Of a stretch of 32,000 nucleotides of DNA, positions 3,674 to 23,064 are shown in pieces. The stretch is from assembly GCA_947624015.1 (NCBI GenBank), contig CANQIA010000003.1, positions 101,541 through 133,540 on the forward strand, given 5' to 3'. Within the stretch, counting starts at the first letter, position 1. Every line of letters starts with the position of its first letter. Made by a program: the position numbers and the translations under genes. The DNA is from an uncultured Clostridia bacterium (lineage in GTDB: Bacteria > Bacillota > Clostridia > Lachnospirales > CAG-274). The notes beneath the pieces are model-generated. The model did no database searches. It saw nothing but the letters and a program-made list of their open reading frames with translations, and was not told the DNA's origin.

Positions 3674-3787
3674 ACAAAAATTTAATTAGTATCGGTTTAA
3701 CTGCCATACAAGGTTTTTCTATGTCTAATGTCAACACTAATATATTTTTGCTATATTGCAAATTTAATCGAAAGGATGATATTTAAA

Positions 3788-4780: not shown

Positions 4781-4784
4781 AAAT

Positions 4785-5852
4785 ATGAAAGTATTATATA
4801 TTGATATATCAATAACAGGTCATCATGTTCCTTATTTAAAGGCATTAAGCAATAAAGAAAACGAAAATATATATATAATACCAAAACATGTTGATGATTT
4901 ATTAGGCAAAATACATATTGTTCCATATGCGAAACAGGATATAGTTTCATTTTATAAGTGGTATTTCAAGATCCTGAAGATAATAAAACAGGAAAATCCC
5001 GATATTATTCACTTTGCTTTTGCAGATGTATTGATTAAAACTTTTGGTATTGGATTAGGATTGATAAAAAAATATAAAATAGTTTGTTCATTTCATAGGA
5101 TGGATAATAATACTTTCAAAAATTTTTCTCGAAATATAATAGCAAACAAAGTTGATATCGTGACTACGCATGTTCTAGGATCAGAGGAGCTTTTTACCGC
5201 AAGAAACCAAAAGAAATGTCACTTTGTTCCATATCCGTCTACACTTGAAGCATATTATTGCTCAACTAAAGAAGCAAGACAAAAGCTTAATATCAATACC
5301 AGCTATCCGGTTATTGCTGTTGTAGGAATAATGTCACAATATAAAAATCTCGATATTTTGTTTAAAGCACTTGAGAATGTGATATTACCATTTTATTTAA
5401 TAATAGCTGGAAAACCATCATATTATTCCGAAACATATTTGAATGATAAAGTTAGTAAATTAAAATCAATAAAAAAAGATAAATTTGATGCTACATTAAT
5501 ATTAAGGTATATTAGCGACGAGGAATTTGTGCAATGCATATCTGCTTCGGATATCATAGCTGTTAACTATTCCAAATCCTTCGAGGGAACCAGCGGACCA
5601 ATGACAGAAGGTATAAGGTTGAAAAAAACTATAATTGGCAGTAGTCACAGCAATATAGGGCATTACATAGCCAAGTATAATATAGGTTATAGTTGTGATG
5701 CAGATGATACAGATGCTCTTGCGGAAATTTTTGAAAAAGCATTGAAAAAACCAATTAAATATACAAATATTGCAGATGAATTAATTAAAATGCAGTCAGC
5801 AGAAGGTTTTAGGAAAGAAATTAGTGTTATATATAAATCGTTAAAAAATTGA
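4785..5852 (+). CDS. Glycosyltransferase, divergent GT-B (GT4-like)
   Basis: Two-lobed GT-B pattern: MKVLYIDISITGHH at the N-terminus, then PVIAVVGIMSQYKNLDILFKA, IIAGKP and FEGTSGPMTEGIRLKKTIIGS in the C-terminal lobe. The ATG lies 4 nt after the previous stop codon. Confidence 0.7.
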   Translation: MKVLYIDISITGHHVPYLKALSNKENENIYIIPKHVDDLLGKIHIVPYAKQDIVSFYKWYFKILKIIKQENPDIIHFAFADVLIKTFGIGLGLIKKYKIVCSFHRMDNNTFKNFSRNIIANKVDIVTTHVLGSEELFTARNQKKCHFVPYPSTLEAYYCSTKEARQKLNINTSYPVIAVVGIMSQYKNLDILFKALENVILPFYLIIAGKPSYYSETYLNDKVSKLKSIKKDKFDATLILRYISDEEFVQCISASDIIAVNYSKSFEGTSGPMTEGIRLKKTIIGSSHSNIGHYIAKYNIGYSCDADDTDALAEIFEKALKKPIKYTNIADELIKMQSAEGFRKEISVIYKSLKN

Positions 5853-6179
5853 TATTTTTGATTTTATCAAAGCTCATGTTTTGAAACATATTTATTTTTC
5901 CGAAATTTGTATAAAGAAGATGGTAATAAATAGGTTTGGCGTGTGATCAGGTAACTAAGAATTTTTTCCATTACATTATTATAAGCATATATTTGGTCAA
6001 TGTTGCCATAATTTCTATATTAAAACCGGTGCAAAATAATTTGCTATGATGGTTAATATCCGATCACGCTTGTATCTGCAACGCAAAAATATATATATCT
6101 TATACATATAATATAAAATTGCAATGTAAAAATAGATGTAAAACTTAAAATTTATAACATCTCACAAAGGAGTAAAAAC

Positions 6180-7121
6180 ATGGAAAAATATGACATATTA
6201 ATTATGGTAACAGAAAAAGACTTAAATGTTTTAAAAATGATGTTGCCATATTGCAAAAAAAATATAGATTCAAAACGGATATGTATTGTAGCAAACAAAA
6301 AAATAAAGCAAAAAGTATGCGAAATAGAAGACATAACATTTATAGATGAAGATACAGTATATGATGGTATGACATTGGATTCTGTAGCAGATATTATTGA
6401 AAACATATGCAATGAAAGAAAGCGTGCAGGATGGTATCTTCAGCAGTTCCTGAAATTAGCTTGGGCATATAAGTGTCAAGACAAAAGATACATTGTGTTG
6501 GATTCTGATACTTTTCCATTAAATAAAATTGAATTTATTGATGATAATGGGATTTGCTTATTTACAAAAAAAGTGGAATATCACAAACCGTATTTTGATA
6601 CACTAAAGAAACTTTTTGACGGAACTGTTTCTAGGGAAAGAGATTTTTCATTTGTGGCAGAACATATGATATTTGAATGTGAATATGTAAAAGAGCTTAT
6701 TAAAAAAATAGAGGGGAACAAGAATCTTATAGGTAATACATTTTATGAAAAAATATTAAGAGCAATAAATAAAGACGATTTGCTAAAATCGGGATTCAGC
6801 GAATTTGAAACATATGGTAATTATATGCTTGTATATCATCCTGAAAGTGTTCATATACGCAGCCTACGTACTCAGAGAGAAGCAATGGTACTCATAGGAA
6901 GTCATCCCACATTGGCTCAGCTTGAATGGGCTTCAAAAGATTATGATCTGATTTCAATAGAGGGGGATTATTGCAACAATAGCTTAATGATAAAACTTTC
7001 TTCTTCAGCCATTATAAGAAAAATATTCAAATTAAAAACCTTTGCTAGAATAAGAAGTAGAATTCGTACAGTATATAGAAAATTAACAAAAAAGCAAGAC
7101 TTCAAACTAGAAGACAATTAA
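6180..7121 (+). CDS. Putative nucleotide-diphospho-sugar (GT-A-like) transferase of an uncharacterised family
   Basis: Strong SD AAAGGAG before the ATG. Motif GWYLQQFLKLAW is followed by a DxD-like YIVLDSDTFP. I recall this pattern from uncharacterised polysaccharide-locus proteins but cannot name the family with certainty. Confidence 0.5.
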   Translation: MEKYDILIMVTEKDLNVLKMMLPYCKKNIDSKRICIVANKKIKQKVCEIEDITFIDEDTVYDGMTLDSVADIIENICNERKRAGWYLQQFLKLAWAYKCQDKRYIVLDSDTFPLNKIEFIDDNGICLFTKKVEYHKPYFDTLKKLFDGTVSRERDFSFVAEHMIFECEYVKELIKKIEGNKNLIGNTFYEKILRAINKDDLLKSGFSEFETYGNYMLVYHPESVHIRSLRTQREAMVLIGSHPTLAQLEWASKDYDLISIEGDYCNNSLMIKLSSSAIIRKIFKLKTFARIRSRIRTVYRKLTKKQDFKLEDN

Positions 7122-7137
7122 AAAAGGAGCTTATGCT

Positions 7138-8658
7138 ATGGAACGAAGCAAAAAAGCACTAAAAAATGTAACAACAGGCATTCTGAATAAGATGTTAATA
7201 ATGCTGTTTGCTTTTGCTTCACGAACGGTTTTTATAAAAACACTTGGGGCAGAATATACAGGTATAAGCAGTCTATATACAAATATTCTTTCAATGCTTT
7301 CCCTTGCGGAACTTGGTCTTGGAAATGTATTATCATTTTACTTGTATTCTGCTCTTAGAAAAAATGATAAGGAAGAAATACGGGGGCTTATTAAAGAATT
7401 TAGACACATATATTTTTTGATCATTCTACTTATTTTTATATTTGGTATTGCTATAATTCCATTTATAAGTATTATGGTCAAAAGTAATATTAGCAGTCGT
7501 GAATTAATATTGTACTATATCCTTTATCTTATTAATTCATTGGCATCATATTTTGTTGTATACAGAACAATGGTCATTTCTGCCGATCAGAAAAGTTATG
7601 TATCCAACATATGTCATACATTTACAACTATGGTCATGTATGTTCTGCAAGTCCTTTATTTGCTGATATTTCACGATTTTTTAGGATATTTGATAATACA
7701 GGTAATGTGTACCATAGGTCATAATTTAATAATGAATCACATTGCATGCGTAAAATATCCATATCTGGTCAATTTAAAGAACACAACTGCAATCCTTATA
7801 GATAAGCGAAGTTTATTTAAAAATATAAAAGCAACATTTATATTTAAAGTGTCGGACACAATATTGGATCAGACAGATAACATTATCATTTCAATTATGT
7901 TTGGAACCGTTTTTGTGGGATTTTATTCTAATTACTATATGATTATTGTTTATCTTTGTAACATTGCAGCTATTATTGCTAATGGTCTGGTTGCAGGATT
8001 TGGAAATCTAGTAGCAGAAGCAAATAAAGAAAAAAATTATTCCATGTTTAAAAGTTCCATGCTTTTGTTCTCTGTATTTGGTACTTTTTCTACAGTTTGT
8101 TATTTTTGTCTTATACAGGATTTTATAAGAATATGGATTGGACAGCAATACATTATGAATTATGGTCTTATAGTAGCAATACTGACAGTGTTTTATTTGC
8201 GCATGGTTACAAATACTGTATGGATATATCGTATTGCCATGGGATTATTTAAAGAAGTTCAATACATAAACTTTATTGCAGCATTATTAAATATTATATT
8301 ATCAATAGCTTTAGGTAGGCTAATAGGTATGTCCGGAGTAATTTTAGCGACTGCTGTATCCAGATTACTCACATCATTTTGGTATGAAGGACAAGTAGTT
8401 TTTAAAAAATTTAATAAACCAGTTAAAATATACTATTTTAAACAGGCTAAAGACTTGTTTATTGCAGCCATTATTATATCAATATCATTTTTTTTAACAT
8501 CCCAAATAACATACGAAGGATTTGCGGTGTTGATAATTAAATTATTAATATGCGTGATTGTTACATTTACCATAGAAATTCTATTTAACTACAATACAGA
8601 AGAGGGACAAACACTAAAAAATAAAATTTTAATCGGAATAAAATCGAAGCACAAATAA
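7138..8658 (+). CDS. wzx: Wzx-type oligosaccharide flippase (MOP superfamily polysaccharide biosynthesis protein)
   Basis: 506 aa with about 12-14 hydrophobic helices and a typical N-terminus (KKALKNVTTGILNKMLIMLFAFASRTVFIKTLGAEYTGISSLYTNIL). SD AAGGAG lies 8 nt upstream. Confidence 0.8.
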   Translation: MERSKKALKNVTTGILNKMLIMLFAFASRTVFIKTLGAEYTGISSLYTNILSMLSLAELGLGNVLSFYLYSALRKNDKEEIRGLIKEFRHIYFLIILLIFIFGIAIIPFISIMVKSNISSRELILYYILYLINSLASYFVVYRTMVISADQKSYVSNICHTFTTMVMYVLQVLYLLIFHDFLGYLIIQVMCTIGHNLIMNHIACVKYPYLVNLKNTTAILIDKRSLFKNIKATFIFKVSDTILDQTDNIIISIMFGTVFVGFYSNYYMIIVYLCNIAAIIANGLVAGFGNLVAEANKEKNYSMFKSSMLLFSVFGTFSTVCYFCLIQDFIRIWIGQQYIMNYGLIVAILTVFYLRMVTNTVWIYRIAMGLFKEVQYINFIAALLNIILSIALGRLIGMSGVILATAVSRLLTSFWYEGQVVFKKFNKPVKIYYFKQAKDLFIAAIIISISFFLTSQITYEGFAVLIIKLLICVIVTFTIEILFNYNTEEGQTLKNKILIGIKSKHK

Positions 8659-8749: not shown

Positions 8750-9799
8750 ATGAAAAAAGCACTGATAACCGGCATTACCGGTCAGGACGGCTCTTATTTA
8801 GCCGAATTTTTAATAGAAAAAGGCTATGATGTACATGGTGTTACTCGCCGTGCATCTATTTCAAATACAGCAAGGATAGATCATCTTATTGCGGATAATT
8901 TAATTACTCTCCATGATGGCGATCTGTCCGATTCATCGTCATTGATGCGTATCATCGCTCTTGTTCAACCTGACGAGATATACAATCTGGCAGCTCAGAG
9001 TCATGTTCAGGTCTCATTTGATGTCCCTGAATATTCGGGAGATATAGACGCATTGGGCTGTCTGAGGATCCTTGAGGCTGTGCGTATACTTGGTATGACT
9101 AAAAAGACTAAAATATATCAGGCTTCCACATCCGAGCTGTACGGCAAAGTTGAGGAAATTCCTCAGAATGAGAATACACACTTTCATCCATACAGCCCCT
9201 ATGCTGTAGCAAAGCAGTATGGCTTCTGGATAACAAAGGAGTACAGAGAAGCTTACGGCGTGTTTGCTGTAAACGGTATTTTGTTTAATCACGAATCCGA
9301 GAGACGTGGCGAAAATTTTGTTACAAGGAAAATAACTCTTGCCGCAGGTCGTATTGCAGAAGGCTTACAAGATTATCTTGAGCTTGGCAATCTTGATTCA
9401 CTTCGGGATTGGGGCTATGCAAAGGATTATGTTGAGTGTATGTGGCTTATTATGCAACAGGACAAGCCCGAGGATTTTGTTATTGCTACCGGCGTACAGC
9501 ATACCGTAAGAGATTTTACGGAAAAAGCTTTTGCCGCTAATGGTATAGCACTTCGCTGGGAAGGTAATGGCATCGATGAAAAGGGTTATGATTCACAAAC
9601 AGGCAAAATGCTTGTATGCGTAAACCCACAATGGTTCAGACCCACCGATGTGGACAACCTTTTGGGCGATCCCACTAAAGCAAGAACTGTTTTGGGTTGG
9701 GATCCGCAAAAAACAAGCTATGAAGAACTTATCAAAATAATGGCTGAACATGACAGAATGCTTGCCAAACGTGAAAAAGCTATGAAAAAATTACAGTAA
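8750..9799 (+). CDS. gmd: GDP-mannose 4,6-dehydratase
   Basis: Diagnostic N-terminus [30 protein letters not shown], plus [15 protein letters not shown] and [29 protein letters not shown]. Confidence 0.97.
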
Positions 9800-9819
9800 T
9801 ACATAAAGAAGGTAAAATT

Positions 9820-10764
9820 ATGATGGATAAAAATTCTAAGATATATGTAGCAGGTCATAGAGGAATGGTAGGTTCGGCTATTGTAAGAGAGCTTGAAAGA
9901 CAGGGATATACAAATATTATTACGAGGACTCATGCCGAGCTTGATTTATGCAGACAAGCCGATGTCGAGAAATTCTTTTCTGAAGAAAAGCCCGAATATG
10001 TTTTTCTGGCTGCCGCAAAGGTAGGCGGAATTGTTGCCAACCAAAACGCATTGGCAGACTTTATGTACGACAATATGATACTTGAAATGAATGTGATACA
10101 TTCAGCATGGCAGAATGGGTGTAAAAAGCTGGAGTTTTTAGGCTCCTCTTGCATTTATCCTCGTATGGCTCCACAGCCTATGCAGGAAAGCTGTTTGCTC
10201 ACATCGGAGTTGGAAAAGACCAATGAAGCATATGCCCTTGCGAAAATTTCCGGTCTTAAATATTGCGAATTTCTCAACAGACAGTATGGCACCGATTACA
10301 TAAGCGTTATGCCTACTAATCTGTACGGTCCAAATGATAATTATCATCCTGTTCACAGCCATGTACTTCCGGCGCTTATACGTCGCTTCCACGAAGCTAA
10401 GGAACAGGGACTTGGATCTGTGACCTGTTGGGGTGACGGTTCGCCGTTAAGAGAATTTTTGTATGTGGATGACCTTGCTGACCTCTGCGTATTCCTTATG
10501 AATAACTACAGCGGAAATGAAACTGTAAATGCAGGTACAGGCGAGGAGCTTACAATAAAGGAGCTTACAGAGCTTGTGGCTGATGTTATAGGGTATAAAG
10601 GCGAGATCAAGTGGGATACTTCAAAGCCTAACGGTACTCCAAGAAAGCTCCTGGATGTTTCCAAAGCCACAAAATTAGGATGGACATACAAGACGGAATT
10701 AAAAGATGGAATAAAGATGTCCTATGAGGATTTTCTCAATAATCCCATGAGGGCAGAAAGATAA
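9820..10764 (+). CDS. fcl: GDP-L-fucose synthase (GDP-4-keto-6-deoxymannose 3,5-epimerase/4-reductase)
   Basis: KIYVAGHRGMVGSAIVRELERQGY, AAAKVGGIVANQ, YALAKISGLKYCE and PTNLYGPNDN. Lies immediately downstream of gmd. Confidence 0.95.
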   Translation: MMDKNSKIYVAGHRGMVGSAIVRELERQGYTNIITRTHAELDLCRQADVEKFFSEEKPEYVFLAAAKVGGIVANQNALADFMYDNMILEMNVIHSAWQNGCKKLEFLGSSCIYPRMAPQPMQESCLLTSELEKTNEAYALAKISGLKYCEFLNRQYGTDYISVMPTNLYGPNDNYHPVHSHVLPALIRRFHEAKEQGLGSVTCWGDGSPLREFLYVDDLADLCVFLMNNYSGNETVNAGTGEELTIKELTELVADVIGYKGEIKWDTSKPNGTPRKLLDVSKATKLGWTYKTELKDGIKMSYEDFLNNPMRAER

Positions 10765-10783
10765 ATACAGGGAGAGAATGTAT

Positions 10784-12100
10784 ATGAATATTATATTGCT
10801 ATCGGGAGGCTCAGGCAAAAGACTGTGGCCATTGTCAAACGATATACGTTCCAAGCAGTTCATAAAAATATTCAAAACAGATGACGGCACATATGAATCT
10901 ATGGTTCAACGAGTATATCGTCAGATAAAAAACATAGACAAAAATGCAAACATAACAATAGCAACCTCAAAAACACAGGTTTCGGCTATACATAATCAGC
11001 TTGGCGAAGATGTAGGCATATCTGTTGAGCCTGCAAGACGTGATACATTTCCGGCTATTGCTCTTGCGACGTCATATCTTTACGACGTGCGGGGAATCTC
11101 GGAAGATGAAGCTGTTGTTGTATGCCCTGTTGACCCTTATGTTGAGGATGATTACTTTAGGGCATTAAAAGCACTTTATGAACAGGCGAAAAAAGGCGAA
11201 GCCAATATTGTACTTATGGGTATAAAGCCTACATATCCAAGTGAAAAATATGGTTATATCATACCCGAAAGCAGCGACAGTATAAGCAAGGTTTCTACCT
11301 TTAAGGAAAAACCCGATGAAGCGACAGCCAAAAAGTATATAAACCAAGGAGCATTATGGAATGGCGGTGTGTTCGCATATAAGCTTAAATATGTGCTTGA
11401 CAAAGCCCATGAGCTTATAGATTTTACGGATTATGAGGATCTGTTTTCAAAGTACGATACTTTGGACAAAATAAGCTTTGACTATGCTGTTGCGGAGAAG
11501 GAAAAAATCATACAGGTAATGCGTTTTTCGGGACAGTGGAAGGACTTGGGTACCTGGAATACTTTAAGCGAGGCTATGGGCGAAAATACCGTTGGCAGCG
11601 CTATTATGAATGATAAATGCAATAACGTGCATATTATAAACGAGCTTGATGTACCTGTGCTTGCTATGGGTTTGAATGATGTTATTATATCAGCCAGTCC
11701 CGAAGGAATACTTGTATCCGATAAGGAACAGTCCAGTTATATCAAGCCCTATGTAGATGATATAGATCAGCAGATAATGTTTGCGGAAAAATCCTGGGGA
11801 AGTTTCAGAGTGCTTGATGTTGAGGAAGAAAGCCTTGCTATAAAGGTAACTCTTAACGCAGGCAATAGTATGAATTACCACAGTCATAGAAACAGAAACG
11901 AGGTTTGGGTAGTTATTTCGGGGGAAGGTCGTACAGTTGTAGACGGTATGGAGCAGGAGGTCAGCACAGGTGATGTTATAACAATGCAGGCAGGCTGTCG
12001 GCATACTGTTATTGCTACAACGGAGTTGAAGCTTATAGAAGTACAGTTGGGCAAGGAGATAAGTGTTCATGACAAGCAAAAATACCCACTTGAGCAATAA
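10784..12100 (+). CDS. manC: Mannose-1-phosphate guanylyltransferase with C-terminal cupin domain
   Basis: NTP-transferase loop MNIILLSGGSGKRLWPLS and a C-terminal cupin (GNSMNYHSHRNRNEVWVVISGEG...GDVITMQAGCRHTV). SD GGGAGAG favours ATG 10784 over 10778. Confidence 0.9.
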   Translation: MNIILLSGGSGKRLWPLSNDIRSKQFIKIFKTDDGTYESMVQRVYRQIKNIDKNANITIATSKTQVSAIHNQLGEDVGISVEPARRDTFPAIALATSYLYDVRGISEDEAVVVCPVDPYVEDDYFRALKALYEQAKKGEANIVLMGIKPTYPSEKYGYIIPESSDSISKVSTFKEKPDEATAKKYINQGALWNGGVFAYKLKYVLDKAHELIDFTDYEDLFSKYDTLDKISFDYAVAEKEKIIQVMRFSGQWKDLGTWNTLSEAMGENTVGSAIMNDKCNNVHIINELDVPVLAMGLNDVIISASPEGILVSDKEQSSYIKPYVDDIDQQIMFAEKSWGSFRVLDVEEESLAIKVTLNAGNSMNYHSHRNRNEVWVVISGEGRTVVDGMEQEVSTGDVITMQAGCRHTVIATTELKLIEVQLGKEISVHDKQKYPLEQ

Positions 12101-13076
12101 ACCATTTTTGCTTAAACCTGCAGGAAAAGACTATATATGGGGCGGTAGCAGATTAAACGATGATTTTGGCAAGGGAATACCTATGGAACCACTTGCCGAA
12201 ACATGGGAGTGTTCTACTCATCCCGATGGACCAAGCATTGCAATAAGTGGCGAATACAAGGGAATAACCTTAACACAAATTATTAAAGAGAATCCCGAAT
12301 ATTTGGGAACACATCCATCAACAAAAAATGAAATGCCAATACTTATAAAGCTTATAGATGCAAAAAAAGATCTGTCTGTACAAGTGCATCCCGATGATAA
12401 CTATGCAAGGAAAAATGAAAACGGACAGCTTGGCAAAACGGAAATGTGGTATGTTCTCGATGCGACAAAAGACGCAAAACTTATATATGGTTTAAAACAC
12501 GATACAACAGCCGACAAGCTAAGAAAAAGTATCGAAAACAGAACTATTGAAAAACATCTTCAAAAAATTTCCATAAAAAAGGACGATGTTTTTTATATAG
12601 AAGCAGGAACTATCCATGCAATAGGCGCAGGCGCTCTTATAGCGGAAATACAGGAAAATTCCAATATAACCTACAGGTTGTATGACTATGACCGCACAGA
12701 CAAAAGCGGAAATAAAAGGCAACTGCATATAAATAAGGCTCTTGAAGCTGCCAATTTAAAAAGCAGTAAAGAGCCTGTACAGCCAATGAGAGTGCTGAAA
12801 TATCGGCAAGGCTGCGCATCTGAATTATTGTGCAGATGTAAATATTTTGAGGTATACAGAATGCTTTTGAATACAGAGAGATGCAGAAAATATGTAGGAT
12901 ATCAGGCAGACAGCACCTCTTTCAGAGTTTTATTATGCATAAACGGATGCGGAACAATGCTTTTGGACAATAATGAGGTAATAAGCTTTTTTAAAGGAGA
13001 CTGTATATTTGTGCCTGCAGAGTCTGTAAAGATAAGGTTGCATGGTAAGGCGGAATTTTTAGATGTAAGGGGATAA
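12069..13076 (+). CDS. manA: Mannose-6-phosphate isomerase, class I
   Basis: PMI-I metal/active-site motifs LSVQVHPDD, KTEMWYVL and GTIHAIGAG. SD AAGGAGA (12053-12059) is 9 nt before ATG 12069. The gene overlaps the manC 3' end. Confidence 0.9.
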   Translation: MTSKNTHLSNKPFLLKPAGKDYIWGGSRLNDDFGKGIPMEPLAETWECSTHPDGPSIAISGEYKGITLTQIIKENPEYLGTHPSTKNEMPILIKLIDAKKDLSVQVHPDDNYARKNENGQLGKTEMWYVLDATKDAKLIYGLKHDTTADKLRKSIENRTIEKHLQKISIKKDDVFYIEAGTIHAIGAGALIAEIQENSNITYRLYDYDRTDKSGNKRQLHINKALEAANLKSSKEPVQPMRVLKYRQGCASELLCRCKYFEVYRMLLNTERCRKYVGYQADSTSFRVLLCINGCGTMLLDNNEVISFFKGDCIFVPAESVKIRLHGKAEFLDVRG

Positions 13077-13082
13077 TTGTTT

Positions 13083-14255
13083 ATGAAAACTAAAGAATAT
13101 TTTTTACATTTGCTTTCATCATACATAAACAATAATCCACCTATGGAAGAAAACTCAATTGATTGGAATGAAATACTTTATCTTGCACAGATACATTCTG
13201 TACAGAGTATTATATATATAAGTATAAATAAACTAAAAAATAAACCTCCTATATATGATAAGCTAAAAGAATTGTTCTACATATCTGTAAATTTATCCAT
13301 AACACAGGATGTATTGATGAAAAATGTAATCGATGCCCTTACTGAAAATGGTATTGATCATATGCTTATGAAAGGCTACATATTGAAAAATTATTATCCT
13401 GATAAAGAAGCAAGAACTTTTGGAGATATTGATTTTCTTATAGATGAAAGGGATCGAGAGAAGTGCGATGCAGTTCTTAAAAATATAGGATTTGAATTTG
13501 TTGAGGAAGAATATGTCAAAGAAGTATGGGTATATAGAAAAAGACAAGTTACGCTTGAAGTTCACACAGAAATAATATACGAAAAGCTGTTTTTTGATAT
13601 TGACTACAGAAATTTTTTCCATGATAAAGTAAAAAATAAGCAGCTTATAGCAGATAATACCTATGAACTTAAAAAGGAAGATCATTTCATTTATTTGCTT
13701 GTTCATCTGGCGAAACATTTCTATAATGCAGGTGTGGGAATAAGAATGTTTATGGATATAGCTGTTATGCTAAACAAATTTGGCAAAGAGCTTGACTGTA
13801 AATATATTTATACTGAAATTGAAAAGCTTAGACTTACAAAGTTTGCAAATATAGTTTATTTTATATGCAAAAAATATTTTAATTCCAATATTGATTGCCG
13901 TGATATAACTAGAAATGAAGAAAATATAATTATGGCGTATATACTAGATCATGGAATTTTTGGATTTGAAAATAAAGATTACTTTGATATTCTATATCAT
14001 AAAAATGATGATAGCAAATTATCTACTATAAGAAAAAGACTTTTTCCGGATTATGAATACATGAAAGGGCACAATAAGTGGTTTTATAATGGTAAACGGA
14101 TAATGCTTCCATATGCATGGAGCAGACGTTTACTTGGACATCTACTCAAAAAGAATAAGAGGAAAGAAATAATAGATAAATTGAACGTCGCCATAAAGTG
14201 TGGTAATGATTTTCAAAAACATAATAACATACTGAATATGGTTGGGTTAAAATAA
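13083..14255 (+). CDS. Uncharacterised nucleotidyltransferase-fold protein (pol-beta type, NTP_transf_5-like), paralog 1
   Basis: KGYILKNYYPDKEARTFGDIDFLIDERD fits the hG..(x)..DxD pol-beta nucleotidyltransferase signature. Clearly homologous along its whole length to the gene at 21868-23064. Starts 7 nt after the manA stop (ATG 13083; TTG 13077 is also possible). Confidence 0.65.
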   Translation: MKTKEYFLHLLSSYINNNPPMEENSIDWNEILYLAQIHSVQSIIYISINKLKNKPPIYDKLKELFYISVNLSITQDVLMKNVIDALTENGIDHMLMKGYILKNYYPDKEARTFGDIDFLIDERDREKCDAVLKNIGFEFVEEEYVKEVWVYRKRQVTLEVHTEIIYEKLFFDIDYRNFFHDKVKNKQLIADNTYELKKEDHFIYLLVHLAKHFYNAGVGIRMFMDIAVMLNKFGKELDCKYIYTEIEKLRLTKFANIVYFICKKYFNSNIDCRDITRNEENIIMAYILDHGIFGFENKDYFDILYHKNDDSKLSTIRKRLFPDYEYMKGHNKWFYNGKRIMLPYAWSRRLLGHLLKKNKRKEIIDKLNVAIKCGNDFQKHNNILNMVGLK

Positions 14256-15448: not shown

Positions 15449-16492
15449 GTGAGTAATATAAAAAGGAATTCAGGTATAGAATTGCTTAGAATTATCTGCG
15501 TTATCTTGATTATTTGTCATCACTATTCTTTCCATGGGGGCTTCCTTCAATTTTCTTACGATGATATTGGCTTAAATATAATTTTTATTCAAATGTTAAA
15601 TATGTTTGGAAAGGCTTCTTGTTCTGTGTTTGCATTAATATCAGGATATTTTTTGATCAATGCAAAGAATGACATTAATTACTATAAGAAAATTGTTAAT
15701 TTAATATTTGAAATGTTCTTTTATTCGGTATTGATATTATTTATCGCTTTATTAACAAGAGCCGTTCCTATATCCGGAGTAGCTGTTGTTAAGGCTCTTT
15801 TTCCTATATTTTGGGGCAATTGGTATGTTATTTTTTATATAATTCTTTATTTAATTGTACCTTTTATAAATCCGGGACTCAAAGCTATGAATAAGAAAGA
15901 ATATACACTATTTTTAATGCTTTTATTATTTATATGGTGTATTGTTCCAACATTTACAGGTACAGCTTAGGAAATGTGTTCAATGGATTTCTTTATAGTT
16001 ATGTATCTTATTGGCGCATATATAAGATTATATATAAAAAGTATTTATAGTAATAGAAGAAAAATATTTTTGTGTTTGGTTTTGTCAACCCTTATAATGC
16101 TTTTAACCGTTCCCGTAATTGATTTTATTGGAAAAATATTAAAAGCAAACGTTATAATAAACCATGCAACATATTTTATGAAATATAATTCTATTATTTC
16201 TGTGGTGTGGGCAGTATCTGTATTTTTGTTCTTTTGTACTTTAAAATTCAAAAGCAATATAGTAAATTATATTGCAGGGTCAGTACTTGGAATATATCTT
16301 ATACATGACAATTTTATTTTAAGACAATATATATGGCAAGTAATTTACCCTAACAGTAATTATATAGAATTTCCATATATCCATGCTGCGACAAAAATAT
16401 TCTCGGTATTTGCTATATGTCTTATTATAGATATACTTAGAAGAATAACTATAGAAAAAGTATTCAATAGCTGTTTAAGAAATTTATTTTAA
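15449..16492 (+). pseudogene. Acyltransferase family 3 (polysaccharide O-acyltransferase) interrupted by a single in-frame TAG
   Basis: The two track ORFs (15449-15970 and 15974-16492) are in the same frame, separated only by TAG 15968-15970 plus one codon (...PTFTGTA*EMCSMDFFIVMYLIGAYIRLY). Together they give a ~345-aa, ~10-helix protein with the N-terminal acyltransferase-3 motif (IELLRIICVILIICHHY). GTG start with SD AAGGAGGG. The second half has no convincing SD of its own. Confidence 0.8.
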
Positions 16493-16746
16493 CTAAATTT
16501 CTTTAGTGTTGAAGTAAAGCATTCACATATCTTCTTACAAATAATTTAATTAAAAATTTGATTTAGTATATATAGGGATCAATATTATTACATATAAGAA
16601 AATAATTTTGTTCAAATTGGATATGTGTAAATTAAAACATATTCATGAGCAGTTATAAAGAAAAATTATTTTTACGGTTTTATGGATTGCAAACAAATGT
16701 AACCGATTTCCCGAATTTATTTGAAAATTTATATGGAGATTCGAGC

Positions 16747-17547
16747 ATGAAAAAAATAACATCTGAAGAAATGAAAGCCTTACAAGTCAATATACTTATT
16801 GATTTTGCAAAATTTTGTGATAAAAACAATCTGCATTATACATTAGGATACGGAACACTTTTAGGAGCTATAAGGCATAAAGGCTTCATACCGTGGGATG
16901 ATGATATTGATGTATTTATGCCACGACCTGACTACGAAAAGTTTATTAATATAATACGGGGAAATAAAATTTCTCCTTTTATAGATGTTATCTCATATAA
17001 ATTTGGCAATAGCACATACCCATTTATAAAACTTATAGATAATCGTACAGAAGTAGAAGAAAAATTTGTAAAGGATGTAAGAATTGGTGTATGGATTGAT
17101 ATATTTGCTATTGATGGAAATTTTAATAATAGTTTTCTTAGTATGCTCCATTACAAAACAGCAGCGCTCATAAGAAAAGTAGTTGAAATCAAAAGAAATA
17201 ATTTTGGCTCGGGAACAACAACGACAAAGAGAATTTTAAAAAGCTTTATATATCCTTTTACTATATTCTTTTCTTTTGATTTTTTATTAAAAACAATGGA
17301 TAGAGTATGTTGTTTAAGAAAATATGATAAAAGTAATTATATAGGATGCGTTGTTTGGGGATATGGCAGCAGAGGGCGAATTGAGAAGAAAGGTTTTTTT
17401 GAATGCATAGATGTGGAATTTGAAGGACATATTTTTAAAGTCACATCAAATTATGACAAATATTTAAAAAATATATACGGAAACTATATGCAGCTTCCAC
17501 CTGAGAATAAACGTATTAAACACAATTATGAAGCTTGGTGGAAATAA
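16747..17547 (+). CDS. licD: LicD-family phospho(no)-alcohol transferase
   Basis: LicD core LGYGTLLGAIRHKGFIPWDDDIDVFMPRPDYEKF with a typical N-terminal LQVNILIDFAKFCDKNNLHY. SD GGAGA precedes ATG 16747; the track's upstream extension from 16645 is not LicD-like. Confidence 0.85.
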   Translation: MKKITSEEMKALQVNILIDFAKFCDKNNLHYTLGYGTLLGAIRHKGFIPWDDDIDVFMPRPDYEKFINIIRGNKISPFIDVISYKFGNSTYPFIKLIDNRTEVEEKFVKDVRIGVWIDIFAIDGNFNNSFLSMLHYKTAALIRKVVEIKRNNFGSGTTTTKRILKSFIYPFTIFFSFDFLLKTMDRVCCLRKYDKSNYIGCVVWGYGSRGRIEKKGFFECIDVEFEGHIFKVTSNYDKYLKNIYGNYMQLPPENKRIKHNYEAWWK

Positions 17548-17571: not shown

Positions 17572-19581
17572 ATGAAAGCATTAATATTAAACTCAGGCTT
17601 AGGTAGTCGCATGGGAGTCCTTACCTCAGAGCATCCCAAATGCATGACCGAGATTTCAAGCAGAGAAACGATTTTAAGCAGACAGCTTAAACAGCTTGCA
17701 GACGCAGGTATAAACGAAGTGATAATGACAACGGGACTTTTTGACGGTGTTCTTGTGGACTACTGCCACAGTCTTGACCTGCCTTTACATATCACATTCA
17801 TTAAAAATCCAAAATACAAGGCAACAAACTATATTTATTCCATTTACTGTGCAAAGGATCATCTTGACGATGACATTGTTCTTATGCACGGTGATATTGT
17901 ATTTGAGAATGAAGTTTTTGACAAGCTTATTGCCTGTGAAGAAAGCTGTATGGTTGTAAGCTCTACCCTTTCACTTCCCGAAAAGGATTTTAAAGCCGTT
18001 ATACAGAATGGTCTTATCAAAAAAATAGGTATTGAGTTCTTTAATGAGGCTATGGCTGCACAGCCCTTATATAAGCTGAATAAAGAGGATTGGAAGGTAT
18101 GGCTTGACAGTATTGTTTCCTACTGTGAAAGCGGTAAGACTGACTGCTATGCTGAAAATGCCTTTAACGATGTTTCAGGTAAATGCAAGTTATTCCCTCT
18201 TGATGTTAAAAATATGCTCTGTAATGAGATAGACAACCCGGAGGACTTGGCTGTCGTATCATCAAGGCTTAAAGAAATAGAAAACAGGACTGTGTATATG
18301 TGCTTTTCAACAGACATCATACACAGCGGTCACATTGATATAATCAAAAAGGCTGAAAGGCTTGGCAAGCTAATTATAGGCGTTTTATCCGATAAAGCTA
18401 TATCAAGCTACAAGAGATTTCCCCTTCTTCCCTTTGAGGAAAGAAAAACTATGTTCAAAAATATAGCAGGGGTTTACGATGTTGTGGAACAGAAAAATCT
18501 CAGCTATAAGGAAAATCTCGAAAAATATCAGCCCGATTATGTAGTGCATGGTGATGACTGGGTATCAGGTTTTCAGAAGCCTATAAGAGATGAGGTCGTA
18601 TCAATACTTGCTTCCTATGGCGGAATACTTGTAGAGTATCCCTATTCCAACGATGAAAAATACAAGGCTCTCGACGACAGAGCAAGAGCTGACTTATCTC
18701 TGCCCGATATAAGACGTGCAAGGCTTAAAAAAGCTCTTGATATGAAGGGGACTATTACGGCTATGGAGGCTCACAGTGGTATAACAGGACTTATAGTTGA
18801 AAAAACAAAGGTATACCAGAATGGCGAAACACACGAATTTGACGCTATGTGGATAAGCTCTCTCTGTGATTCTACGGCAAAGGGAAAACCCGATATCGAG
18901 CTTGTAGATATGACATCCCGTTTCCGTACCATTGACGACATCATGGAGGTCACTACAAAACCTATCATATTTGACGGAGATACAGGCGGACTTACGGAGC
19001 ACTTTGTATACACGGTAAAGAGCCTTGAGCGTATGGGCGTTTCAATGGTAATAATAGAGGACAAGACAGGTCTTAAAAAGAACTCCCTCTTTGGTACGGA
19101 AGTTGAACAGACTCAGGACAGTATAGAAAACTTCAGCGCTAAAATAGCCGCAGGCAAGAAAGCTCAGAAAACAAAGGACTTTATGATATGCGCCCGTATT
19201 GAGAGCCTTATACTTGAAAGAGGTATGGAGGACGCATTGGAAAGAGCCTTTGCATTTACCGTGGCGGGAGCAGACGCCATTATGATACACAGCAGGAAAA
19301 AGGACCCTGCTGAGATATTTGAATTTGTTGAAAAATTCAGAGAAAAGGACAAGACTACACCTATCGTTGTTGTCCCCACTTCCTTCAATACGGTTACGGA
19401 GGAGGAGTTCAAAGAACACGGTGTAAACATAATCATATATGCAAATCAGCTTACAAGGACAGGCTTCCCCGCTATGCAGAATGCAGCTAGGACTATACTT
19501 GAAAATCACAGGGCTAAGGAATGTGATGATATGTGTATGTCAATAAAGGACATAATAACGCTTATTCCCGAAGAAGGCTGA
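17572..19581 (+). CDS. Three-domain fusion: LicC/PntC-like nucleotidyltransferase + HxGH cytidylyltransferase-like domain + phosphoenolpyruvate phosphomutase
   Basis: aa 1-~240 MKALILNSGLGSRMG... (LicC-type NTP-transferase). aa ~245-375 CFSTDIIHSGHIDIIKKAERLG (HSGH at nt 18322-18333; TagD/ECT-type fold). aa ~380-669 belong to the isocitrate lyase/PEP mutase superfamily and carry the Ppm-diagnostic EDKx5NS motif (EDKTGLKKNS, nt 19057-19086). SD AAAGGAG. Confidence 0.9.
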   Translation: MKALILNSGLGSRMGVLTSEHPKCMTEISSRETILSRQLKQLADAGINEVIMTTGLFDGVLVDYCHSLDLPLHITFIKNPKYKATNYIYSIYCAKDHLDDDIVLMHGDIVFENEVFDKLIACEESCMVVSSTLSLPEKDFKAVIQNGLIKKIGIEFFNEAMAAQPLYKLNKEDWKVWLDSIVSYCESGKTDCYAENAFNDVSGKCKLFPLDVKNMLCNEIDNPEDLAVVSSRLKEIENRTVYMCFSTDIIHSGHIDIIKKAERLGKLIIGVLSDKAISSYKRFPLLPFEERKTMFKNIAGVYDVVEQKNLSYKENLEKYQPDYVVHGDDWVSGFQKPIRDEVVSILASYGGILVEYPYSNDEKYKALDDRARADLSLPDIRRARLKKALDMKGTITAMEAHSGITGLIVEKTKVYQNGETHEFDAMWISSLCDSTAKGKPDIELVDMTSRFRTIDDIMEVTTKPIIFDGDTGGLTEHFVYTVKSLERMGVSMVIIEDKTGLKKNSLFGTEVEQTQDSIENFSAKIAAGKKAQKTKDFMICARIESLILERGMEDALERAFAFTVAGADAIMIHSRKKDPAEIFEFVEKFREKDKTTPIVVVPTSFNTVTEEEFKEHGVNIIIYANQLTRTGFPAMQNAARTILENHRAKECDDMCMSIKDIITLIPEEG

Positions 19582-19593
19582 CAAGGAGAAAAT

Positions 19594-20706
19594 ATGAGTG
19601 AGCAGATCATTATAAGGACAGACGGAAACTATGATGAATTGAATACATATCTTGAAAACAAGGGTATTAAGAGGATATTTCTTGTATGTGACAGCTCAAT
19701 AGGCTTTCTCGGAATAAACAGCTTTTTTGAAAGCCTTAAAAATATCTATGTTACAAGATTCAGTGACTTTGAGCCAAATCCATTGTATGAGTCTATTGTT
19801 AAGGGTGTTGACGCATTTAACAAAGAAAAATGCAATTGTATCATAGCTGTAGGCGGCGGAAGCGCAATAGATGTTGCCAAGTGCATAAAGCTATATTCTC
19901 CTATGGATAAAAGCAAAAATTATCTGGAACAGAAAATAGTACCCAATGACATACCGTTTATAGCTGTTCCCACGACTGCCGGAACAGGCAGCGAAGCAAC
20001 AAGGTTTGCCGTTATATATTACAAGGGAGAAAAGCAGTCTGTAACGGATATAAGCTGTATTCCCGATGCAGTTCTTATGGATAGTTCCGTACTTGACACA
20101 CTGCCAATATATCAAAGAAAAGCCACAATGCTTGACGCTCTCTGTCATTCCGTAGAATCCTTTTGGTCTGTAAATTCAAATGACGAAAGCAAGGAATATT
20201 CCAAGAAAGCTCTTGAAATGATCATAGGAAATATGGACTCATATCTGACGAATGACAAAGACGGCAATACAGCCATGATGGAGGCGGCGCACCTTGCAGG
20301 CAAGGCTATAAATATAACCCAGACAACGGCAGCACATGCTATGTGCTATAAGCTTACAAGTCTTTATAAAATAGCCCATGGTCACGCTGCGGCATTGTGC
20401 TTGCCTGTACTGTGGGAATATATGCTAAGCAACATGGATAAATGTATTGACAGCAGAGGCAAGGTCTATCTTAAAGCTGTTTTTGACGATATTGCCAAGG
20501 TTTTGGGCTGTGATACACCGATAAAGGCTGTGGAAAAGCTTAAAGCAATAATAAACAGCTTGGAATTGCCGATACCAACAGCAGATGAAAAGGACTTTGA
20601 AATATTAAGAACGTCCGTAAATCCCATTAGGCTAAAAAATAATCCTATTGCATTGGATACCGATGCCATTGACGAAATATATCACAGAATACTTAATACG
20701 AAATAA
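19594..20706 (+). CDS. Group III iron-containing alcohol dehydrogenase, probable phosphonoacetaldehyde reductase (2-hydroxyethylphosphonate-forming)
   Basis: Fe-ADH signatures AVGGGSAIDVAKCIK, VPTTAGTGSE and the His cluster AAHAMCYKLTSLYKIAHGHA. Sits between the Ppm and Ppd genes, where PhpC/FomC/DhpG-type reductases occur. The family call is strong; the substrate call rests on context. Confidence 0.75.
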   Translation: MSEQIIIRTDGNYDELNTYLENKGIKRIFLVCDSSIGFLGINSFFESLKNIYVTRFSDFEPNPLYESIVKGVDAFNKEKCNCIIAVGGGSAIDVAKCIKLYSPMDKSKNYLEQKIVPNDIPFIAVPTTAGTGSEATRFAVIYYKGEKQSVTDISCIPDAVLMDSSVLDTLPIYQRKATMLDALCHSVESFWSVNSNDESKEYSKKALEMIIGNMDSYLTNDKDGNTAMMEAAHLAGKAINITQTTAAHAMCYKLTSLYKIAHGHAAALCLPVLWEYMLSNMDKCIDSRGKVYLKAVFDDIAKVLGCDTPIKAVEKLKAIINSLELPIPTADEKDFEILRTSVNPIRLKNNPIALDTDAIDEIYHRILNTK

Positions 20707-20721
20707 TCGGAGGAGTTGTAT

Positions 20722-21849
20722 ATGAAAGCAGAAAGTTTAGTCAGAATAATAGGTTCGGATTTTTATACGGGCGTACCGGATTCACAGATAAAGGCGCTTT
20801 GCAATTATCTTATGAATACATACGGCATAGATCCTAAGCATCACTTAATAGCGGCAAATGAAGGCAACTGTACCGCTCTTGCGGCAGGCTATCATCTTGC
20901 CACGGGGAAAGTGCCTGTTGTATACATGCAGAACAGCGGCGAGGGAAATATAATAAACCCGGTCGCATCGCTTCTCAATGACAAGGTTTATGCCATACCC
21001 TGTATATTTATAATAGGATGGAGAGGAGAGCCGGGTATTCACGATGAGCCTCAGCACATATATCAGGGCGAAGTGACCGTAAAGCTCCTTGAGGATATGG
21101 ATATAAAGCCTTTCATAATTGGCACGGATACCACCGATGAAGAAGTTGAAAAGGCTATGTCCGATTTCAGAGAGATATTAGCAAAGGGCAAAAGCGTTGC
21201 CTTTGTAATACGCAAGAACGCTCTGACCTACGACGGAAAAGTCAAGTACGAAAACGATAATAAAATGGTCAGAGAGGAAATAATACAGCATATAGTCAAA
21301 TATACAGGCGAAGACCCTGTTGTTTCAACTACGGGAAAGGCAAGCAGAGAGCTTTTTGAAACCAGAGTTGCAAACGGTCAAAGCCATAAATACGACTTCC
21401 TTACGGTAGGTTCTATGGGACACAGTTCATCCATAGCTTTAGGTATTGCCATAAACAAGCCCGATACAAAAATATGGTGTATTGACGGGGACGGGGCTGT
21501 GCTTATGCATATGGGTTCTATGGCGCTTATGGGCGCAAATGCTCCCCAAAATATGGTGCATATAGTTATAAATAACGGCGCTCATGAAACCGTAGGCGGT
21601 ATGCCGACTGTGGCTGAAAAGATAAACCTTGTTGAGATCGCAAGAGCTTGCGGTTATCCCAATGCTATATGCGTTGACAACTTTAACGACCTTGACAAAG
21701 AGCTTGAAAAAGCAAAGGTCAAAAACGAACTGAGCTTCATTGAGGTAAAGTGTTCCATAGGTGCAAGGGATGATCTTGGCAGACCTACTACTACTGCATT
21801 GGAGAATAAAGAATATTTTGTTGGTTATCTTAAAGAGCTCAGCAATTAG
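20722..21849 (+). CDS. ppd: Phosphonopyruvate decarboxylase (ThDP-dependent)
   Basis: Single-chain Ppd/AepY-like protein: FYTGVPDSQIK and ANEGNCTALAAGYHLATGK in the N-terminal half, and ThDP motif GDGAVLMHMGSMALMG...VINNGAHE. SD GGAGGAG favours ATG 20722 over TTG 20716. Confidence 0.9.
   Translation: MKAESLVRIIGSDFYTGVPDSQIKALCNYLMNTYGIDPKHHLIAANEGNCTALAAGYHLATGKVPVVYMQNSGEGNIINPVASLLNDKVYAIPCIFIIGWRGEPGIHDEPQHIYQGEVTVKLLEDMDIKPFIIGTDTTDEEVEKAMSDFREILAKGKSVAFVIRKNALTYDGKVKYENDNKMVREEIIQHIVKYTGEDPVVSTTGKASRELFETRVANGQSHKYDFLTVGSMGHSSSIALGIAINKPDTKIWCIDGDGAVLMHMGSMALMGANAPQNMVHIVINNGAHETVGGMPTVAEKINLVEIARACGYPNAICVDNFNDLDKELEKAKVKNELSFIEVKCSIGARDDLGRPTTTALENKEYFVGYLKELSN
21671..21813 (+). repeat. 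143-nt near-identical direct repeat, copy A (inside the intact ppd 3' end)
   Basis: Manual alignment to 23991-24133 (offset 2320) gives 141/143 identical. The differences are at 21727 (G vs A) and 21760 (G vs A). Confidence 0.9.
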
Positions 21850-21867: not shown

Positions 21868-23064
21868 ATGATGAATAATAAAATTTATTTTTTGAAGCTG
21901 CTTAAATCATATATATATAATAAAAAAATAGAATATGATGAAAATGTTGACTGGTTCGAAATTCTAAGACTTGCGAATATTCATTCTGTTCAGTGTATGA
22001 TATATCTAGCTATTGATAAATTGGATAAAAGACCTCCTATCTATGATGAGTTAAAAAAACTTTTTTTAAAAACTGTACAGATCTCAACTCTTCAGGAAAT
22101 AGGTATGAAGCAAACAATAGCAACGCTTAACGATAATTGCATTGAACATATACTTATAAAAGGATATGTACTTAGAAACTATTATCCTAATAAGGAAGTT
22201 AGGAGTTTTGGCGATATTGATATTCTGGTCGATGAAAGCGATATAAAAAAAGCCAATAATGCTCTTTTAAATATTGGTTTTGAATTCAATGAGGATAAAT
22301 CGGAAAATGCTGTGCAAACATATACAAAAGGTATCTTATGTTTGGAAATGCATACAGACCTAATATATGAACGACTGTTCAACGATTTTGATTATATCAA
22401 CTATTTTCGAGAGAAAATAAAAAATAAAGAGCATGTCAAAAATTATACTTATACATATGAACTCAAAAAAGAGGATCATTTTATATATATTCTTGTTCAT
22501 CTTGCCAAGCATTTTTATAACATCGGTGCAGGAATAAGAATGGTTCTGGATATAGTTGTATTTTTAAATAAATTTGGCAAAGTAATTGATTTTAAATATA
22601 TAGAAAACGAGCTTGACTCTATACAGCTCAAATATTTTTCTAATGTTATTTTTTATATTTGCAAAAAATACTTTGATACGGATATTGAATGTACACCGAT
22701 CGATGATAAGAAATTAGAACAGATAATTGATTATATTTTGGAACATGGTGTATTTGGCTTTGACAATATAGCGGTGCAGAGCGTTATGCTTAGGAACAAC
22801 GGAGATAAAGGTATCAAGTTATTTTTAAAAATGATGTTTCCTGATATGGCAGTTATGACAAGGATCTATCCATGGTTCAAAAACGGCAATAAATATATGC
22901 TTCCTTATGCATGGTTAAGGAGATGGTTATATCTGCTTACTAACAAAAATAAACGAAATGAAATTGGAACAAAGCTATCTGCTATTATGGATGATGATAT
23001 AGATGTAAATAAACATACTGAAATGATAAAATCTTTTGGACTAAAGCAAGATCGTCATACATAA
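21868..23064 (+). CDS. Uncharacterised nucleotidyltransferase-fold protein (pol-beta type, NTP_transf_5-like), paralog 2
   Basis: KGYVLRNYYPNKEVRSFGDIDILVDESD. Collinear with paralog 1 (shared blocks IHSVQ, KPPIYD/RPPIYD, YELKKEDHFIY.LVHLAKHFYN.G.GIRM, MLPYAW). Starts 18 nt after the ppd stop. Confidence 0.65.
   Translation: MMNNKIYFLKLLKSYIYNKKIEYDENVDWFEILRLANIHSVQCMIYLAIDKLDKRPPIYDELKKLFLKTVQISTLQEIGMKQTIATLNDNCIEHILIKGYVLRNYYPNKEVRSFGDIDILVDESDIKKANNALLNIGFEFNEDKSENAVQTYTKGILCLEMHTDLIYERLFNDFDYINYFREKIKNKEHVKNYTYTYELKKEDHFIYILVHLAKHFYNIGAGIRMVLDIVVFLNKFGKVIDFKYIENELDSIQLKYFSNVIFYICKKYFDTDIECTPIDDKKLEQIIDYILEHGVFGFDNIAVQSVMLRNNGDKGIKLFLKMMFPDMAVMTRIYPWFKNGNKYMLPYAWLRRWLYLLTNKNKRNEIGTKLSAIMDDDIDVNKHTEMIKSFGLKQDRHT

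Follow-up and report, generated by a model that had tools for sequence, protein, structure and literature searches.

The window analysed here, a stretch of 32,000 nucleotides from contig CANQIA010000003.1 of an uncultured bacterium of the Clostridia, carries on its plus strand, at nucleotides 17572-19581, a gene for a 669-residue protein in which two different nucleotidyltransferase domains are followed by a phosphoenolpyruvate (PEP) mutase, Ppm. We propose that this protein is a trifunctional enzyme of a five-domain 2-hydroxyethylphosphonate (HEP) cassette, situated in a fucose-containing Wzx/Wzy-type surface polysaccharide locus and made up of the N-terminal LicC/PntC-like transferase (NT1), a Fom1-type cytidylyltransferase (CyT), Ppm, an iron-containing alcohol dehydrogenase (Fe-ADH) and phosphonopyruvate decarboxylase (Ppd). 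The two transferases would not be simply interchangeable, CyT belonging with Ppm and NT1 with Fe-ADH or the phosphotransferase LicD, since both appear intact and almost every cassette keeps one domain per fold. To this reading as a whole we assign a probability of about 0.55.

Architecture and integrity of the tri-domain protein

The gene starts with ATG and contains no internal stop. Three non-overlapping Pfam domains are found in its product (PF12804/PF00483 at residues 2-126, PF01467 at 248-342 and PF13714 at 389-643), and the full-length AlphaFold2 (AF2) model (predicted local distance difference test, pLDDT, 84.6; predicted template modelling score, pTM, 0.73) sets the boundaries between them: NT1, an alpha/beta NTP-transferase, comprises residues 1-237 (nucleotides 17572-18282), CyT residues 240-360 (18289-18651) and the barrel residues 395-669, while CyT is joined to the barrel by two linker helices within residues 362-392 (18655-18747), which DSSP assigns in the same model to 362-374 and 378-392. 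According to the TIGR02320 and PDB matches, the PEP mutase TIM-barrel domain occupies residues 385-669 (18724-19581 with the stop codon). A separate model of residues 1-380, built from 146 sequences, reached a pLDDT of 91.9 and a pTM of 0.85, the latter of which suggests an interface between NT1 and CyT. The sequence and structure matches of all three domains are far beyond chance. The first-pass annotation of this DNA had described three contiguous domains with no internal stop, a GLGSRMG loop (residues 9-15), an HSGH motif (residues 251-254, nucleotides 18322-18333) and two different nucleotidyltransferase folds fused to a genuine Ppm; reading of the frame, Pfam, NCBIfam and AF2/Foldseek bear this out, both N-terminal regions matching nucleotidyltransferase families with their active sites intact. 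As to the conservation of the domains, the mean identity to the window protein over 119 tri-fusion homologues is 74% for NT1, 79% for CyT and 89% for Ppm.

The C-terminal domain can be taken for a true PEP mutase. It matches PF13714 (residues 389-643, E 4e-55), scores above the NCBIfam TIGR02320 equivalog cutoff (402.6 versus 319.55 bits, residues 385-668) and finds Ppm structures 5unc and 1m1b among the PDB sequences (E 1e-37). Its EDKTGLKKNS stretch (residues 496-505, nucleotides 19057-19086) fits the EDKxxxxxNS motif, which separates Ppm from isocitrate-lyase relatives and is invariant in 120 homologues.

The middle domain matches PF01467 (CTP_transf_like, residues 248-342, E 4e-16) and combines the HxGH motif (H251-S-G-H254) with a Rossmann-like fold. 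It had been described as TagD/ECT-type; the HxGH cytidylyltransferase fold stands, while the generic likeness to TagD or ECT gives way to a specific one, because the Fom1 CyTase (5x3d) is matched at E 3e-37 with 59 of 121 residues identical (49%), as against 1.5e-15 for ECT and 8e-10 for TagD. In Foldseek, CyT superposes on the HEP-CMP-bound Fom1 CyTase with a TM score of 0.94 and a root mean square deviation (rmsd) of 1.1 A. Y280-K281-R282, H326-G-D-D-W330 and P357-Y358 are invariant in tri-fusions, and H251, G253, H254, R291, H326, G327, W330, P357 and Y358 are invariant or nearly so in 145 homologues of three fusion classes. The Fom1 CyTase is reported to be a HEP cytidylyltransferase by experiment (Cho et al., 2017, as cited in PMC6697681 and PMC9088020), and its homology makes CyT most probably an enzyme of the same activity.

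NT1 matches PF12804 (NTP_transf_3, residues 3-126, E 6e-9) and PF00483 (residues 2-117). Its relatives among the PDB sequences are LicC of Streptococcus pneumoniae (1jyk, E 9e-10) and the PntC domain of Tde1415, a PntC-AEPT fusion of Treponema denticola (6pd1, E 7e-5), and Foldseek returns the same two (6pd2, E 1e-16; 1jyk, TM 0.84, rmsd 2.8 A). The fold and the GxG(S/T)R-x8-PK motif are common to all three proteins, although the identity of NT1 to Tde PntC and LicC is only about 13-20%. The LicC/PntC signature GxG(T/S)R-x4-8-PK, which contains the catalytic arginine and lysine, is present in NT1 as G9-L-G-S-R13 ... P22-K23. Besides the GxGSR loop (residues 9-13) and K23, the key residues are H106-G107-D108, K138-D139-F140-K141, Y193-A194-E195 and E219-x-D221; in the same 145 homologues all of these, together with G9, G11 and R13, are invariant or nearly so. 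R13, K23 and E195 align with R15, K25 and E196 of Tde-PntC, in which replacement of R15 or K25 by alanine leaves less than 10% of activity. The metal-binding acids D108, E219 and D221 and the lysines K138 and K141 are invariant, and E219-x-D221 aligns with the EID motif of LicC, that of its E216.

The substrate pocket of NT1 differs from that of its characterised relatives. In these, an acidic pair (E104/E196 in Tde PntC, D105/D192 in LicC) serves the amine or quaternary ammonium group, its first member being the residue that contacts the 2-aminoethylphosphonate (AEP) amine or choline. The second position is kept in NT1 as E195; the first is not acidic, being an invariant His106, whose equivalence to Tde E104 is read directly from the alignment, while that to LicC D105 needs a one-residue manual shift. 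Moreover, Ala194 stands in place of the aromatic-box Trp of LicC. Because the first amine-contacting acid is replaced by an invariant histidine, NT1 is probably PntC-like in mechanism but not an AEP or phosphocholine enzyme; His106 would fit an uncharged hydroxy-phosphonate, and the expected substrate is HEP rather than AEP or phosphocholine.

Comparison with locus L008, the closest relative, gave dN/dS ratios (nonsynonymous to synonymous substitution rates) of 0.089 for NT1, 0.016 for CyT and 0.018 for Ppm; only this pair could be used, dS being saturated for every other one. Judging by the invariant catalytic residues and the strong purifying selection found in NT1 as well as CyT, neither nucleotidyltransferase domain is degenerate.

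Fusion arrangements of the cassette in related genomes and metagenomes

The architecture of the window protein has been catalogued before. Among Ppm fusions in RefSeq, Rice et al. (2019; PMC6697681) found 33% with PF12804, 23.6% with PF01467, and 42 triple fusions of PF12804, PF01467 and PF13714, that is, 2.8% of non-redundant Ppm. This class has exactly the architecture of the window protein, the EDKxxxxxNS filter included; however, the triple fusions were only counted there, with no function, taxonomy, neighbourhood or explanation for the two transferases. Li and Horsman (2022; PMC8942020) mention PntC-Ppm and PF01467-Ppm fusions and call HEP neighbourhoods poorly explored. A literature search for a characterised tri-domain enzyme, CMP-HEP transferases and clostridial phosphonoglycans found only these two papers. 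Our contribution is to define the five-domain HEP cassette by its neighbourhood, to trace the fusion back to adjacent genes, and to describe the alternative arrangements and the near-universal co-retention of both folds.

In our searches, the 120 best matches to the window protein are all full-length tri-fusions (666-687 residues, 79-100% identity), their named sources being Lachnospiraceae, Ruminococcus flavefaciens 007c, Hungatella hathewayi, Acetatifactor and Oscillospiraceae. A scan with one genome per species, made with a 7-sequence NT1 alignment since a 27-sequence one was too diverse, found at least 578 NT1 relatives, and tri-fusions account for 73 of the 80 best species-level genome loci. 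In 66 of these 73 the tri-fusion gene is followed by Fe-ADH, in 65 by Ppd, and LicD lies within 10 kb in 21. The scan gave only close relatives (66-94% identity) and is thus a census of tri-fusions with few other contexts. Among gut and rumen Clostridia the triple fusion predominates, and the window protein is a member of a class that is ordinary in its lineage and catalogued. The idea that the architecture is odd is therefore not sustained, and the suspicion that it might be the ordinary, already characterised clostridial Ppm holds only in part: ordinary and catalogued it is, while no biochemical characterisation was found in the literature searched.

Tri-fusion loci of the genome scan belong mostly to Clostridia, with some in metagenome-assembled genomes (MAGs) carrying other labels. 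Loci L022, L029, L041, L061, L071 and L072, from MAGs labelled Planctomycetaceae, Lentisphaeria, Flexilinea/Chloroflexi and Bacteroidales, contain tri-fusions whose NT1 is about 70% identical to ours (tblastn, residues 1-235); these are either cross-phylum transfers of the cassette or binning errors.

Other arrangements came from a metagenome scan seeded with stand-alone NT1 proteins. Its 80 loci include 55 tri-fusions and 11 split forms with separate NT1 and CyT-Ppm genes, in the order [Ppd][NT1 gene][CyT-Ppm gene][Fe-ADH]. In the split form, NT1 stops about 10 residues past a conserved EIDxPEDL helix and abuts the start of CyT-Ppm, which begins M-K-(x)-T-V-Y-M-x-F-S-T-D, at the very point where the sequence of the window protein runs ...KEIENRTVYMCFSTD. 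The split proteins are 57-67% (NT1) and 66-75% (CyT-Ppm) identical to the respective parts of the window protein, one CyT fragment truncated by a contig end being 49% identical. Since the end of split NT1 and the start of CyT-Ppm meet at the domain junction of the window protein, the triple fusion appears to have arisen by joining of two adjacent genes, for NT1 and for a Fom1-like CyT-Ppm, or, equivalently, the split forms would be fissions of the triple fusion.

A search with NT1 alone among 1.84 billion representatives yielded 210 clusters below E 1e-30. Apart from the tri-fusion, they comprise stand-alone proteins of about 240 residues, dozens of NT1-FeADH proteins of about 600 residues, NT1-FeADH-LicD proteins of 875-1228 residues and NT1-CyT-FeADH proteins of about 750 residues. 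Such fusions from Clostridia (e.g., P0129, P0289, P0325) belong to the same NT1 clade (35-65% identity) and the same HEP cassette, with the same partners CyT-Ppm, Ppd and LicD; they differ in that the reductase carries NT1, alone or together with CyT, and Ppm retains a CyT of its own. Indeed, a Fom1-like CyT-Ppm of 431-438 residues was present in every inspected neighbourhood, next to NT1-FeADH (L088, L089, L090), NT1-FeADH-LicD (L173) and NT1-CyT-FeADH (L091, L092, L040, L131). Thus one NT1 and one or more CyT are retained together nearly universally, in four or more different fusion arrangements of the cassette, and NT1 travels with the HEP-forming reductase, sometimes with LicD, while CyT travels with Ppm. 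Owing to the fusion of its relatives to the reductase and LicD, NT1 is most probably a cytidylyltransferase of the HEP branch as well. The CyT contained in the NT1-CyT-FeADH proteins has another residue in place of R282 in 22 of 62 cases and bears D248N together with D329N in 12 of 62, at positions invariant in tri-fusions; these substitutions fit a relaxed or changed constraint on a supernumerary copy, with one canonical CyT needed per cassette.

We also considered NT1-FeADH as a module similar to Gtp2/Gtp1 of S. pneumoniae 23F, which provides CDP-2-glycerol. This candidate was rejected: every inspected NT1-FeADH locus has CyT-Ppm and Ppd, there is no conserved kinase, and the downstream HAD protein is KdsC-like.

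Several variants of the cassette deserve separate mention. Chains of 875-1228 residues composed of NT1, Fe-ADH and one or two LicD domains (P0289 in L173, nucleotides 2495-5122; P0183, P0185, P0250) put the making, activating and transferring steps on one polypeptide, beside CyT-Ppm and Ppd. A TagF-like CDP-glycerol glycerophosphotransferase (PF04464) replaces LicD beside the tri-fusion gene in L006/L007 (6772-7986), L033, L165, L166 and L088, where teichoic-acid-like transfer or polymerisation of HEP is a possibility. Locus L020 encodes, at 9096-12892, LicD, a complete 376-residue NT1-CyT protein and an NTP_transf_5 protein, Ppm, Fe-ADH and Ppd being absent; it resembles the window locus with the phosphonate-forming genes deleted. 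The cluster may be decaying, or the strain may activate HEP that it scavenges. An Aminotran_5-type aminotransferase occurs in some tri-fusion loci (L003 of Ruminococcus flavefaciens 007c, 5530-7974; L098, 2347-3063), and both AEP and HEP may be made there; L003 also has a CyT-GFO_IDH_MocA fusion. Finally, the NT1-CyT-FeADH/CyT-Ppm cassettes of L091 and L092 adjoin nonulosonic-acid genes (NeuB, CTP_transf_3, aminotransferase), and L091 has a FliB_C-type gene as well, a context that hints at phosphonate modification of flagellin-type glycans.

The polysaccharide locus of the window

The tri-domain gene lies within a same-strand polysaccharide locus extending from about nucleotide 100 to 23800, which contains several GT4 glycosyltransferases, a Wzx-like flippase, GDP-mannose dehydratase, a second epimerase/reductase, ManC and PMI. 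Immediately upstream, at a distance of 24 nucleotides, is the gene of a LicD-family phosphotransferase (16645-17547, plus strand; PF04991, E 3e-43). Downstream, also on the plus strand, follow Fe-ADH (19594-20706; PF00465/PF25137), the presumed phosphonoacetaldehyde reductase, and Ppd (20716-21849; TIGR03297, 458.4 versus a cutoff of 312.5 bits). Since Fe-ADH and Ppd follow the tri-domain gene and there is no aminotransferase in the window, the phosphonate made is expected to be HEP, not AEP. Of the two phosphonates named earlier as possible substrates of one transferase, HEP and AEP, it is thereby HEP that is supported, and a LicD gene does lie next to the fusion.

Two paralogous plus-strand genes for NTP_transf_5 proteins (PF14907) bracket the LicD/phosphonate block: one upstream (13077-14255; Pfam E 1e-50, no NCBIfam match) and one directly after Ppd (21868-23064; Pfam E 2e-43), the latter being followed by a KdsC-like HAD phosphatase. 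The order Ppd, NTP_transf_5 is also found in L008, and PF14907 recurs near the cassette in L008, L020, L028, L030, L033, L076 and L143; its occurrence beside a Ppm was noted by Li and Horsman (2022; PMC8942020). We suppose that these proteins may be LicD-like phospho(no)transferases.

Some other features of the window are as follows. An Acyl_transf_3 O-acyltransferase is split over two plus-strand open reading frames, 15449-15970 and 15974-16492, one matching the N-terminal and the other the C-terminal half of the Pfam model; the independent assemblies L001 and L002 show this split too. The gene either truly consists of two pieces or has inherited a frameshift. The GC content is mosaic: the glycosyltransferase and flippase genes have about 28-31%, and the GDP-sugar genes (8.7-13 kb), the phosphonate cassette (17.5-21.8 kb) and the thiamine/feoB flank have about 40%. 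Such a pattern is usual in polysaccharide loci, and no clear sign that the cassette was transferred can be read from it. When the 32,000 nucleotides were scanned with Rfam, no family reached the gathering score, the thiamine pyrophosphate (TPP) riboswitch included, although the minus strand carries thiE-thiH-thiG-thiF at 26.4-29.5 kb.

Proposed pathway and division of labour between the transferases

According to the proposed pathway, the Ppm domain would convert PEP to phosphonopyruvate, Ppd would decarboxylate the latter to phosphonoacetaldehyde, and Fe-ADH would reduce this to HEP, which would then react with cytidine triphosphate (CTP) to give HEP linked to cytidine monophosphate (CMP-HEP). 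LicD, as the presumed CMP-HEP:glycan phosphonyl transferase, would put the phosphonyl group on the glycan, possibly along with the two NTP_transf_5 proteins; in other loci, the TagF-like Glyphos_transf protein is a possible transferase. The division of labour that we deem most likely is that CyT acts as a Fom1-type HEP cytidylyltransferase travelling with Ppm, and that NT1, a cytidylyltransferase of the PntC kind, is adapted to an uncharged hydroxy-phosphonate, goes with Fe-ADH and LicD and feeds the transferase. The inferred parts of this scheme are the substrates of NT1 and CyT, the action of LicD and whatever may distinguish the two products, in distinction to the observed domain identities, intactness, purifying selection, cassette conservation and fusion permutations.

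Among the nearest known systems is that of Fom1 from Streptomyces wedmorensis, a CyTase-Ppm protein of fosfomycin biosynthesis, whose two domains have the same order as residues 240-669 of the window protein and whose pathway leads to HEP through the same Ppm, Ppd and Fe-ADH. In contrast to Fom1, the window protein has the additional N-terminal LicC/PntC-like domain and comes from a clostridial gut bacterium, not an actinomycete, and its gene resides in a polysaccharide locus with LicD and without Fom3, Fom4 and FomD. On the latter grounds, CMP-HEP would be here a transfer donor rather than a transient intermediate. As to the PntC-AEPT protein, its transferase is fused to the maker of its own substrate, which is mirrored by the NT1-FeADH relatives.

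Several facts weigh against our reading. If CyT, by its homology to Fom1, and NT1, by its fusion to Fe-ADH and LicD, both make CMP-HEP, there would be no evident reason to keep both. The Streptomyces fosfomycin cluster and the AEP cluster of Bacteroides fragilis manage with CyT alone. An identity of 49% to the Fom1 CyTase is no guarantee of the same substrate; Fe-ADH matches the phosphonate-specific model Phn_Fe-ADH (TIGR03405) below its cutoff; NT1 occurs alone in L021, L093 and L102, and NT1-CyT-FeADH is found with no Ppm within 10 kb in L065, L066 and L161. Furthermore, no biochemical study of the triple fusion was found in the literature searched.

It could be that NT1 and CyT are strictly isofunctional, both forming CMP-HEP from HEP and CTP, as a historical accident of the merger of CyT-Ppm with a PntC-type enzyme, kept for flux or channelling. 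Such an explanation would be in line with the closeness of CyT to the HEP-specific Fom1 enzyme (49% identity, TM 0.94), with the fusion of NT1 relatives to the HEP-forming Fe-ADH and to LicD, and with the lack of an obvious second substrate in the minimal cassette; yet in some 150 loci, with four or more fusion arrangements among them, one copy of each fold has been kept, under strong purifying selection on both. Redundant domains are expected to be lost often, and signs of decay are confined to the extra CyT of NT1-CyT-FeADH. The co-retention of both folds thus argues against simple redundancy, which we consider rather unlikely. The first-pass annotation had offered another solution, the activation of a linker polyol phosphate by one of the domains. 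In its broader form, one domain would activate a second, non-phosphonate substrate (glycerol phosphate, another polyol phosphate, phosphocholine or a sugar 1-phosphate) for a second phosphotransferase, and this is made conceivable by the several phosphotransferases that are common in a locus (one LicD and two NTP_transf_5 in the window; 2-7 LicD genes or a TagF-like Glyphos_transf in related loci) and by the fact that the NT1 fold also covers inositol-phosphate and sugar-phosphate transferases. Moreover, HEP mono(2,3-dihydroxypropyl) esters reportedly occur in actinomycete phosphonoglycans, as Yu et al. are said to have described in 2014. However, NT1 is repeatedly and specifically fused to Fe-ADH, and CyT to Ppm; no kinase or dehydrogenase that would supply the second substrate belongs to the conserved cassette, and among solved structures CyT is closest to the HEP enzyme rather than to TagD. 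Both the partners in the fusions and the absence of supply genes speak against an unrelated second substrate, so that the polyol-phosphate variant is disfavoured and the whole idea is, in our opinion, doubtful.

A degenerate transferase domain, non-catalytic, regulatory or purely structural, is highly improbable. This had also been suggested in the form of a degenerate regulatory module, which is contradicted by the dN/dS values and by the invariance of all the consensus catalytic residues of both folds, and both domains fold confidently in AF2 and superpose on active enzymes. Nothing specific favours it, apart from the coexistence of Ppm-fused transferases with a separate PntC in AEP clusters (Rice et al., 2019; PMC6697681). 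Non-interchangeable transferases, CyT with Ppm and NT1 with Fe-ADH/LicD, therefore remain our preferred reading.

A tentative possibility, which we do not favour, is that the two transferases catalyse different, obligatorily coupled nucleotidyl transfers: for example, one of them could act on phosphonoacetaldehyde or phosphonopyruvate, so that Fe-ADH would work on a CMP-bound substrate, or the two could make distinct donors for different phosphotransferases. A precedent for the former is known from the FR-900098 and fosfomycin pathways, whose later enzymes act on CMP-bound substrates. Doubled transferases also occur in AEP clusters of Treponema, Olsenella and Atopobium. If coupled transfers were true, a general rule for surface phosphonate pathways could be stated, with one transferase fused to Ppm and another to the last enzyme.

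Phosphonate decorations of bacterial surfaces are poorly understood, while the cassette discussed here is very common in gut and rumen Clostridia. The comparative data sharpen a question to which the 2019 inventory gave no answer, namely, why phosphonate tailoring clusters keep two nucleotidyltransferases, and the split, tri-fused, reductase-fused and LicD-fused variants constitute natural test material for answering it. The finding would matter more should the two transferases turn out to have distinct chemistry, and knowing how they share the work would help to explain the way in which abundant commensals attach HEP to their glycans.

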